This document shows positions 32,024 through 33,556 of a stretch of 64,000 nucleotides of DNA, piece by piece. Position numbers and translations under genes: made by a program. How positions within the stretch are numbered: the stretch's first letter is position 1; every line of letters starts with the position of its first letter. Under the pieces are notes generated by a model. That model did not search any database. It was not told where the DNA came from and was given only the letters and a program-made list of their open reading frames with translations. Origin of the DNA: an uncultured Candidatus Poseidoniales archaeon (GTDB lineage Archaea > Thermoplasmatota > Poseidoniia > Poseidoniales > Thalassarchaeaceae); contig CAXDMJ010000002.1 of the NCBI GenBank assembly GCA_963990035.1, positions 3,441 to 67,440 of the forward strand. The letters run 5' to 3'.

Positions 32024-33556
32024 ATGAAGAAAACGAAAAATATGAGTATGTTGATTGCACTACTTCTCGTGCTAATGGCTGGTTCAGTTAGCGTTCAAGC
32101 TGACGGTTCTGACCCACTCGACCCATCTGATGGTGGCGCCGATTGGGATGGAGATGGACTAACCAATGCTGAGGAGCAGGCTGCAGGAACAGACATGAAC
32201 AATGCAGATACTGACAACGATGGAATACCTGATGGATGGGAAGTAGCTTACGGGCTAAATCCACTTTCATCAAGTGATGCGAACGCAGATCCGGATGGCG
32301 ATGGCTTATCTAACTCTCAGGAGTACTCCGCGGGTACAAACCCAAACAGTGCTGATACTGATGGTGACGGTGTAGCTGACGGCTCCGATGCGTTCCCTAA
32401 CGATCCTAATGACGGATCTTCATCTGACTCTGATGGCGACGGAATACCTGATGCGTATGACCCTGATTTCCCAGGGAACGACGAAGGTGACGGCGAAGGC
32501 GGCACCAATGGTGGCGGCGAAGGAGAAAATGGTGAAGGTGAAGGACAAGGACAAGGTCAAGGACAAGGTCAAGGACAAGGTCAAGGTCAAGGTCAAGGTC
32601 AAGGTCAAGGACAAGGACAAGGTCAAGGACAAGGTCAAGGCCAAGATGGTCAACAAGGCCAAGGTCAAGACCAAGGATCGCAATCCGGACAAGATGGTCA
32701 ACAAGGCCAAGACAGTCAGGAAGGATCACAAGGTCAGCAGCAAGATAATGGACAAGGCCAGCAATCTGGTGGGGAACAAACAGGTCAACAAGGTGACCAA
32801 ACTGGCGATAGTCAGAATGGAAATAACCAAAACGGCCAGAACCAACAGCAGCAAGGTCAGACCCAAGACTCCAATCAAGGACAACAGGGTCAACAATCCG
32901 ATCAGCAGCAAAACCAACAACTCGAGAACCAAGACCAGAACGGTGAGAACGACAACGATGGAGACGGCATCCCTGATGACCTAGACTTCGACGATGACAA
33001 TGATGGCATCCCTGATAATCAGGATGCTAATCCCGAGGATCACGATAACGATGGTATCGACGATGCAGATGATGATGACGATGATGGAGACGGAATTGAC
33101 GACCAAGAGGAAGTTAATGACGGTAATCCAAACACAGACATCTATGATCACGACAACGACGGTGTTAGCGATAACGTAGACTTTGATATTGACAATGACG
33201 GCATTGACAACTGGAACGACATTGGACCGAACGGTGAGGATTACTCACGCGATCACGACAATGACGGACTAGCTGACGGTGTAGATACTGACGATGATAA
33301 TGATAACATCCTTGATGTTGACGAAAACGATGGCGTTACCGGCGTTTGGAGATACGATCATGACAACGATGGATACCAAGATTACTTGGATCTAGACGAT
33401 GATAATGATGGTCTTTCCGACTGGTTTGAGCAGAATGATGGCTGGAGTGATACCGGCCAATTCGACCACGACAATGATGGAGTGGAAGATTATCTGGATG
33501 ATGATGACGATGGAGATGGTATCATTGATACTGACGAAAACGGCGTTATTCTCTGA
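32024..33556 (+). CDS. Secreted calcium-binding repeat protein: thrombospondin-type-3-like DxDxDG repeats flanking a (GQ)n low-complexity linker
   Basis: Signal peptide 'MSMLIALLLVLMAGSVSVQA'. More than 15 'D(T/P/S)D(N/G)DG(I/L/V)xDxxD' repeats and a central (GQ)26-like run. Confidence 0.8.
   Translation: MKKTKNMSMLIALLLVLMAGSVSVQADGSDPLDPSDGGADWDGDGLTNAEEQAAGTDMNNADTDNDGIPDGWEVAYGLNPLSSSDANADPDGDGLSNSQEYSAGTNPNSADTDGDGVADGSDAFPNDPNDGSSSDSDGDGIPDAYDPDFPGNDEGDGEGGTNGGGEGENGEGEGQGQGQGQGQGQGQGQGQGQGQGQGQGQGQGQGQDGQQGQGQDQGSQSGQDGQQGQDSQEGSQGQQQDNGQGQQSGGEQTGQQGDQTGDSQNGNNQNGQNQQQQGQTQDSNQGQQGQQSDQQQNQQLENQDQNGENDNDGDGIPDDLDFDDDNDGIPDNQDANPEDHDNDGIDDADDDDDDGDGIDDQEEVNDGNPNTDIYDHDNDGVSDNVDFDIDNDGIDNWNDIGPNGEDYSRDHDNDGLADGVDTDDDNDNILDVDENDGVTGVWRYDHDNDGYQDYLDLDDDNDGLSDWFEQNDGWSDTGQFDHDNDGVEDYLDDDDDGDGIIDTDENGVIL
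32540..32650 (+). repeat. Hexanucleotide microsatellite (GGNCAA)n encoding (GQ)n
   Basis: About 18 perfect or near-perfect 'ggacaa/ggtcaa' units. Confidence 0.9.

Follow-up and report, generated by a model that had tools for sequence, protein, structure and literature searches.

Within a 64,000-nt stretch of contig CAXDMJ010000002.1 from an uncultured Candidatus Poseidoniales archaeon (in the following, the window), the + strand gene at positions 32024-33556 is, with moderate confidence, a core single-copy gene of Marine Group IIb (MGIIb; Thalassarchaeaceae). Its product would be an exported, anchorless and extremely acidic protein, in which two arrays of Ca2+ loops in the style of thrombospondin type-3 (TSP3) repeats flank an uncharged G/Q-rich spacer with a length-variable run. 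The architecture and the family match of the N-terminal array are observed directly. The run, i.e., a series of GQ dipeptides encoded by a 6-nt unit, is a variable-number in-frame repeat that makes the linker variable in length; it is not an ON/OFF contingency switch.

The open reading frame (ORF) from the program-made list that underlies these coordinates starts with ATG and encodes 510 amino acids (aa), and it holds up as a real gene. Asp (22.7%), Gly (18%) and Gln (13.3%) stand out in the composition of the protein. Its mature form of 484 aa has a computed net charge of about -136, with two basic residues and no Cys, and a sequence scan found no N-glycosylation sequon in it. By inspection, aa 1-26 (32024-32101, + strand) read as a Sec-type signal peptide, MKKTKNMSMLIALLLVLMAGSVSVQA, cut before DGSDP. 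That is, a basic n-region is followed by a hydrophobic core and a small-x-small end, and this pattern is kept in the orthologs. It is also the sole hydrophobic segment of the protein (Kyte-Doolittle 19-mer maximum of 2.06 at aa 6-8; at most -0.14 elsewhere). Secretion, which had been proposed from the sequence, is plausible on these grounds, with Sec as the likely route. Inspection of hydrophobicity and Cys content revealed neither a lipobox Cys nor a C-terminal anchor nor a PGF-CTERM-type sorting signal; the C-terminus reads ...DTDENGVIL.

The protein contains 18 DxDxDG motifs when overlaps are counted. These correspond to 16 separate loops, 5 before and 11 after the linker. The sequence-only reading had counted more than 15 repeats of the form DxDxDGxxD on both sides of the run. 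The flanking arrangement and the loop number are borne out for DxDxDG, but the strict DxDxDGxxD motif occurs just 13 times. An exact look-up of the protein and five orthologs in large protein and contig collections gave no match. Several further ORFs of 68-198 aa overlap the repeat in other frames, e.g., 32388-32984 (+), 32406-32729 (-), 32420-32710 (-) and 32726-32932 (-). Their translations are strings in the manner of (VK)n, (LD)n or (LT)n, so we rejected them as genes and regard them as frame shadows of the repeat.

The N-terminal domain (N-domain; aa 27-170; 32102-32533, + strand) comprises five bacterial-type TSP3 repeats of the pattern DxDGDGLxNxxE...GTDPxxxDTDxDGxxDGxE and ends in an acidic G/E/D-rich junction. 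Taken alone, it passes the Pfam model PF18884 (TSP3_bac) with 75.8 bits (E=2.1e-21, 5 stretches; gathering threshold 25 bits). The respective score of the whole protein is 54.3 bits. The Pfam model of the eukaryotic TSP_3 repeat (PF02412), suggested as a check by the sequence-only reading, yields 15.4 bits for the N-domain (E=0.015), which is below its 25-bit gathering threshold, and nothing for the C-terminal domain (C-domain) at E<=10. The assignment of the repeats as TSP3-like is thereby confirmed for the N-domain by PF18884, but it has no counterpart in Pfam for the 11 C-terminal loops. A match of the N-domain to the anthrax-toxin Ca-binding domain is sub-threshold. Partial NCBIfam matches to MtsD, CglD and Amuc_1099 all stay under their cut-offs; for MtsD (NF047639; 44.6 bits, cut-off 800) and MtsC (NF047638; 20.6 bits, cut-off 350), the repeat segments alone align. 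Among PDB entries, 5WTL is weakly matched (E=0.007). Weak PDB matches to lanmodulin and an EF-hand protein (E about 0.006-0.008) were rejected as homology, since common DxDxDG loops explain them.

The C-domain (aa 306-510; 32939-33553, + strand; delimited by motif positions) is built from six units of about 35 aa. A unit consists of a pair of DxDxDGxxDxxD loops at a distance of 13 residues (e.g., DHDNDGVSDNVDFDIDNDGID) and, after them, a short spacer with an aromatic end. Among 21 orthologs, more than 100 of the 205 columns are invariant, including all loop Asp and the aromatics; loop Asp and Gly taken together are invariant or nearly so. When compared with PDB as a single sequence, the C-domain finds COMP and thrombospondin-1 at E=0.3-0.46. 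Its profile finds COMP at E=0.0026, thrombospondin-2 at 0.051 and 0.11, BamM at 0.062 and no other entries. Composition bias is heavy in both comparisons, and the resemblance is weak. The C-domain is furthermore 41% identical to a metagenomic protein (P0170) that has Pfam TSP_3 as well as TSP3_bac matches, and units of the kind DHDNDG...DDDNDG, as found in the C-domain, are fused to cupredoxin or T9SS domains in other organisms.

Thrombospondin type-3 repeats follow a pattern of 13-residue plus 23-residue motifs. The C-domain resembles this wire of thrombospondin and COMP (PF02412; 1UX6, 1YO8, 2RHP, 3FBY) in its DxDxDGxxDxxD loops, their 13-residue spacing and a period of 35-36 aa, which matches the 36 positions of the Pfam TSP_3 model. 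In contrast to thrombospondin and COMP, the protein is without a lectin-like C-terminal domain, and since it contains no Cys, it cannot form the disulfide pairs of their repeats. In motif and periodicity, the C-domain is thus best described as thrombospondin-type-3-like; it is not a demonstrated member of either Pfam family.

Some variants of the C-domain were observed among the orthologs. Five loci (L035, L049, L060, L069, L076) carry an insertion of 6-20 aa with a Cys pair in the third unit (LDCDGDG...DHDNDC), and two more (L070, L074) show another Cys pair (DNDCIPD...IYDCVD). These pairs point to disulfides that are specific to certain lineages, whereas the protein otherwise has no Cys. In L023 (CAXEUQ010000084.1), Cys-containing TSP3-type repeats take the place of the Q-rich linker before the conserved C-domain. 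Either the assembly is chimeric here, with its joint at a DDDNDGIPD unit, or the gene is a paralog or a recombinant. Most database relatives of the C-domain are short or chimeric gene calls, and exact full-length orthologs are absent from that collection. Five of these proteins (P0008, P0045, P0049, P0056, P0098) start with unrelated N-termini, e.g., a methyltransferase, a GatB/YqeY-like segment or out-of-frame strings. The repeat has probably led to chimeric contigs or to erroneous gene calls in these cases.

The linker between both arrays contains a hexanucleotide array of the form (GGN GAA)2 (GGN CAA)17 at 32531-32645 (+ strand). Tandem Repeats Finder reports it with period 6, 19.2 copies, consensus GGTCAA and a score of 160. 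It is one of just two arrays with a score of at least 70 in the window; the other (8010-8077; 30-nt unit, 2.3 copies) lies inside the minus-strand ORF 7935-8642. The perfect (GQ)17 covers aa 174-207 (32543-32644). A run of about 26 GQ dipeptides, as counted in the sequence-only reading, does not emerge from the translation, which has 17 uninterrupted GQ and 32 in the whole protein. The near-perfect (GGNCAA)n array described there does exist, but its Gly codons are mixed (GGA/GGT/GGC), such that the longest pure hexamer tract has 5 units. Similar mosaics are found in the 77 alleles compared. Here, 2376 of 2915 in-register units encode GQ, using GGT (1117), GGC (709), GGA (539) and GGG (11) for Gly and CAA (1931) or CAG (445) for Gln, and the longest pure hexamer tract per allele has a median of 3 units and a maximum of 17 (102 nt). 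That is, the peptide is kept pure GQ while its Gly and Gln codons are scrambled, which indicates selection at the peptide level.

The second half of the linker is a Q/G/N-rich low-complexity segment (aa 216-305; 32669-32938, + strand; GSQSGQDGQQ...QQLENQDQ) without aromatic, basic or Cys residues. Among 25 complete species-level orthologs, it has a constant length of 91-93 aa and a mean aa identity of 85.5%. For the same orthologs, we find the N-terminal part to comprise 167-178 aa and the C-domain 197-221 aa, while the linker ranges from 97 to 193 aa and its length variation tracks a GQ run of 2-41 copies. The constant segment and the variable run show that the linker has two parts, i.e., a hypervariable (GQ)n and a strongly constrained low-complexity segment.

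These orthologs were collected via the convergent neighbour of the gene, the flap endonuclease FEN1 (XPG_N/XPG_I). A FEN1 search of genome contigs gave 80 loci with identities of up to 93%, all from Poseidoniales and mostly labelled Thalassarchaeaceae/MGIIb, and the gene adjoins FEN1 in 68 of them. A metagenome scan with the N-domain added 80 further loci. Complete orthologs are available from 25 genome contigs and 57 metagenome contigs. The median ratios of nonsynonymous to synonymous substitution rates (dN/dS) are 0.066 for the N-terminal part, 0.053 for the C-domain and 0.046 for the Q-rich second half of the linker. Every part of the protein except the (GQ)n run is therefore under strong purifying selection. 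In the more distant L066, L067, L072 (MGIIb-N1-type) and L037, no ortholog was found beside FEN1, such that the gene may not be universal in the family. The same four loci have other TSP3-repeat genes (35-42% identity) on the opposite side of FEN1.

Next, we compared the GQ run between closely related alleles. Run lengths were read from assemblies, mostly short-read ones, not from reads. In genome contigs, the perfect run comprises 2-41 copies; the maximum among metagenome contigs is 61. Strain-to-strain length variation, as anticipated by the sequence-only reading, is directly visible in alleles with near-identical flanks. Five loci (L055, L083, L084, L085, L086) share at least 99.79% nucleotide identity in their flanks and have 20, 47, 37, 29 and 13 copies, respectively. 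The flanks of L081 and L082 are 99.7% identical, with 61 and 42 copies. For flanks of 100% identity, we observe 5 versus 30 copies (L122, L123) and 28 versus 35 copies (L128, L129). In the latter pair, the codon mosaics have 28 units in common and differ just by one 6-unit and one 1-unit insertion. When the codon mosaic is used as a barcode, L136 and L140 represent the same allele from independent assemblies. An allele of 38 copies occurs in L116, a GOS contig from Sanger sequencing, as well as in two short-read metagenome-assembled genomes (MAGs), and long-read MAGs have 36 and 39 copies. In two lineages, alleles of equal length but different codon mosaic recur (36 copies four times, 38 copies three times). 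Alleles that are otherwise identical thus gain or lose complete 6-nt (GQ) units, and the run changes quickly in this way.

Since the unit length is a multiple of three, slippage or unequal recombination would alter the length of the tether, keep the reading frame and leave expression unchanged. About 80 of the 82 spanning alleles are in frame. A frameshift within the GQ repeat is present in the long-read MAG LRMED-022 (L041), due to a single A insertion (GGCCAG-A-GGTCAA), and in a GOS Sanger contig (L109). Each of the two was seen once and could be a genuine pseudogene or off variant, or else an error of sequencing.

The rival account that we take most seriously is neutral instability, i.e., (GQ)n would be a tolerated unstable insertion whose length drifts by slippage with no functional consequence or adaptive value. 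We regard it as a possibility, if a doubtful one. Lengths from 2 to 61 without an evident optimum across lineages would fit such drift, as would the L018 genome with just 2 GQ, in-frame units that make length changes harmless, and a core gene flanked by housekeeping genes outside a flexible island. However, a pure GQ peptide despite scrambled codons implies selection against non-GQ units. The recurring 36- and 38-copy alleles with different mosaics hint at preferred lengths, and a long run is kept in nearly all members across genera.

Less probable still, and in our view unlikely, is that the true repeat is long and fairly uniform, with length differences arising from collapse or mis-threading by assemblers. 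Assemblers clearly struggle with the run. Among genome contigs with a full FEN1, 31 of 78 end in the one 250-nt bin that holds it, versus a mean of 0.8 contig ends per bin on the opposite side of FEN1, and 20 of 80 metagenome contigs end in it as well. Sanger and long-read data give 36-39 copies, short-read assemblies anywhere from 2 to 61, and extreme pairs such as the 5 versus 30 copies above could reflect collapse. On the other hand, the pure tracts are shorter than usual k-mers or reads and hence resolvable. Two clean insertions inside the run are all that separates L128 from L129, and independent assemblies agree on the allele of L136 and L140. Such clean indel patterns cannot be explained by collapse, nor can lengths of 42, 47 and 61, which exceed the long-read values.

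Finally, the sequence-only reading had suggested that the array behaves as a contingency locus. In the classical sense, where slippage switches the gene on or off or makes antigenic variants for escape from viruses or grazers, this is highly improbable: a strain-variable simple-sequence tract inside the gene of a secreted or surface protein and two spanning contigs frameshifted inside the run would agree with it, but these frameshifts are single and indistinguishable from sequencing errors, the 6-nt unit maintains the frame, chemically identical GQ units provide no new epitope, strong purifying selection acts on the conserved core gene, which lies outside any variable island, and the tract is a synonymous mosaic with no long pure DNA stretch, although alleles with long pure tracts may fail to assemble.

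Comparable features are known from other systems. Proteins with TSP3_bac repeats (OmpA of Capnocytophaga gingivalis, 5WTL; the Myxococcus cell-cohesion proteins MtsC/MtsD; Poseidoniales thrombospondins) are likewise exported, Asp-rich and presumably Ca-dependent. Unlike them, the protein has no OmpA, MYXO-CTERM, T9SS or other partner domain and combines its N-domain with another loop array, for which no model exists, and with a G/Q linker that includes the variable (GQ)n. The staphylococcal Clf/Sdr proteins have a Ser-Asp dipeptide stalk beside Ca-binding modules, which varies in length between strains and is thought to be a spacer. The GQ run is similar in that a degenerate short DNA repeat encodes a long dipeptide repeat of strain-variable length beside Ca-binding modules. 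It differs in being uncharged (GQ, not SD), in its archaeal host, in lacking an LPXTG motif or cell-wall context, and in having no known sequence homology. With in-frame variable-number tandem repeats (VNTRs) such as those of the yeast FLO adhesins, it shares the fast change of whole-unit copy numbers between near-identical strains at a kept frame. Unlike FLO and contingency repeats, it has two-residue units without a binding module, no ON/OFF switching, and a place in a conserved core gene, not in a variable adhesin family.

A further likeness is to the repeats of the Borgs of Methanoperedens, which are reported to be fast-evolving in-frame repeats in archaeal-associated coding sequence that form low-complexity or disordered segments (PMC9879509). 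In contrast to Borgs, we find one chromosomal locus that is conserved across the family, with a tract that is a synonymous mosaic. The Borg repeats are reportedly perfect at the DNA level.

Given these observations, we propose the following mechanism for the two-array protein with its length-variable spacer. The N-terminal array of five TSP3_bac repeats and the C-terminal array of six double-loop units, the latter of an uncatalogued subtype, would stay unfolded until Sec export. Once outside, in seawater with about 10 mM Ca2+, the 16 loops would load Ca2+, such that a flexible tether would connect two rigid modules stabilised by Ca. Its place of action would be the cell surface or an extracellular matrix, where the protein would serve adhesion or cohesion, in line with earlier proposals for TSP3 proteins of Poseidoniales and Myxococcus. 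The run length would change via replication slippage or unequal recombination. Both the Ca2+ binding and the role in adhesion or matrix are suggested by analogy to these systems.

A more far-reaching extension is conceivable, to which we attach little weight. Here, the low-complexity middle would do more than tether the arrays, and the Q/G/N-rich segment and the adjustable (GQ)n would form an extracellular self-associating module (prion-like or gel-forming) and, together with the Ca arrays, build a Ca-crosslinked surface gel or a glue between cells and particles. Repeat length would then tune reach or viscosity at the population level, and a regulator binding the two palindromes upstream of the gene (see below) would control its expression.

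Several points weigh against the proposal of an exported two-array surface protein with an adjustable tether. Ca2+ binding as well as localisation are predictions. Membrane, lipid and sortase-type anchors are all absent from the protein, which leaves its retention at the surface unexplained. No Pfam model is hit by the linker or the C-domain, even when E-values up to 10 are allowed. For the C-domain, AlphaFold2 yields a poor model (pLDDT 61, pTM 0.28), and a Foldseek search with this low-confidence model has 2RHP, 1YO8 and 3FBY as top rows, which are not significant (E=0.004-0.018, TM<=0.27), such that we regard the structural comparison as uninformative. Given its 2 GQ, the L018 genome indicates that a long run may be dispensable. 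Because the run breaks assemblies, impure tracts are overrepresented among the complete alleles, and any single run length from short reads has to be taken with care, since short-read assembly can collapse repeats. Finally, the neighbours are housekeeping genes, such that the genomic context gives no hint on function. Beside FEN1, these encode a PabB-PabA fusion (para-aminobenzoic acid synthesis), a class IV aminotransferase, a THUMP methyltransferase, RibD and a lipid kinase.

The DNA around the gene shows further conserved features. Upstream, we identified two palindromes of a class with a 7-bp stem, a 5-nt loop and the consensus AGRGAAC-NNNGG-GTTCYCT. The proximal palindrome P1 (31973-31992, + strand; GAGAGAAC-AGCGG-GTACTCT) is located 32-51 nt ahead of the start codon; this copy in the window carries one mismatch and has a weak RNA fold. 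Of 82 orthologous loci, 49 have P1 at -40 to -80, and its stems show compensatory double changes among these loci. The distal palindrome P2 (31758-31777, + strand; GAGGGAAC-AGAG-GGTTCCCT) is the second match in the window, where none is expected by chance, and recurs at -220 to -280 in 57 of 82 loci. The 49 loci with both have P2 upstream of P1 at a spacing of 197-220 bp. Within 819 kb of orthologous loci (L002-L160), the palindrome class is confined to the P1 and P2 positions, except for one dissimilar match 1 kb upstream in L133. P1 and P2 could be an operator pair or RNA hairpins; for P1, the hairpin would belong to the 5' untranslated region.

Eight short contigs of the metagenome collection (L085, L086, L087, L090, L101, L125, L150, L158; 1.6-1.9 kb) contain this gene only. 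Most of them start 28-59 nt before the ATG and end 42-68 nt past the stop. Respective starts are at 59 nt for L090, 53 nt for L087 and 126 nt for L158, and L101 and L090 continue for 138 and 343 nt past the stop. These contigs look like assembled monocistronic transcripts, in which case the gene would be well expressed. An archaeal TATA-like box, TTTATACATATTA (31938-31950, + strand), as read from the sequence, would be placed about 20-30 nt before their 5' ends.

Downstream, the 105-nt gap between the gene and the convergent FEN1 (33557-33661) folds as RNA with a minimum free energy of -33.7 kcal/mol (z = -3.9; 0 of 200 shuffles as good). The respective strong hairpin at 33618-33653, which is not assigned to a strand, is probably a terminator or stabiliser for the gene, FEN1 or both. 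Rfam and tRNA scans of the gene and its flanks gave no matches. The window also holds a giant ORF 4 kb upstream (19574-28165, + strand; 2863 aa), which has no Pfam domain above threshold and a sub-threshold match to the PorZ beta-propeller. It may encode a large surface protein.

Concerning prior work, thrombospondin genes are widespread in Ca. Poseidoniales and have been tied to adhesion (Rinke et al., PMC6461757), and a later paper says likewise for MGIIb-N1 (PMC8821943). TSP3-like proteins are also expressed in marine ammonia-oxidizing archaea and were likened to a Myxococcus surface-matrix locus (PMC6593220). In our searches, archaeal TSP3 matches come from Thermoplasmatota as well as Woese-, Kor-, Heimdall- and Hodarchaeales archaea. 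Together with these reports, matches in several archaeal phyla contradict the view that TSP3 repeats are uncommon on secreted archaeal proteins. An exhaustive search of representatives returned 52,164 clusters at E<=1e-3, dominated by giant multi-TSP3 proteins, i.e., the repeat type is very common and the search uninformative on orthologs. Our literature searches found no report on this gene, on its architecture of two arrays and a constant Q-rich segment, or on the hypervariable GQ run and its effect on assembly. The protein class and its presence in Poseidoniales are thus already known; what this gene adds is modest, namely its hypervariable in-frame linker.

Marine Group II archaea belong to the most abundant microbes of surface seawater, and none is in culture. 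How they attach to particles or to one another has been deduced from annotations alone, e.g., 'thrombospondin genes'. While our results do not overturn the current understanding, they have some practical consequences. The GQ run is a systematic break point of MGIIb assemblies and yields chimeric or truncated gene calls in protein databases. At the same time, it is among the fastest-changing sites observed in these loci and thus a ready-made VNTR marker for strains in long-read metagenomes. For the biology of the group, one thrombospondin-type gene is now pinned down as a conserved core gene with a defined architecture, i.e., as a target that can be expressed and tested.

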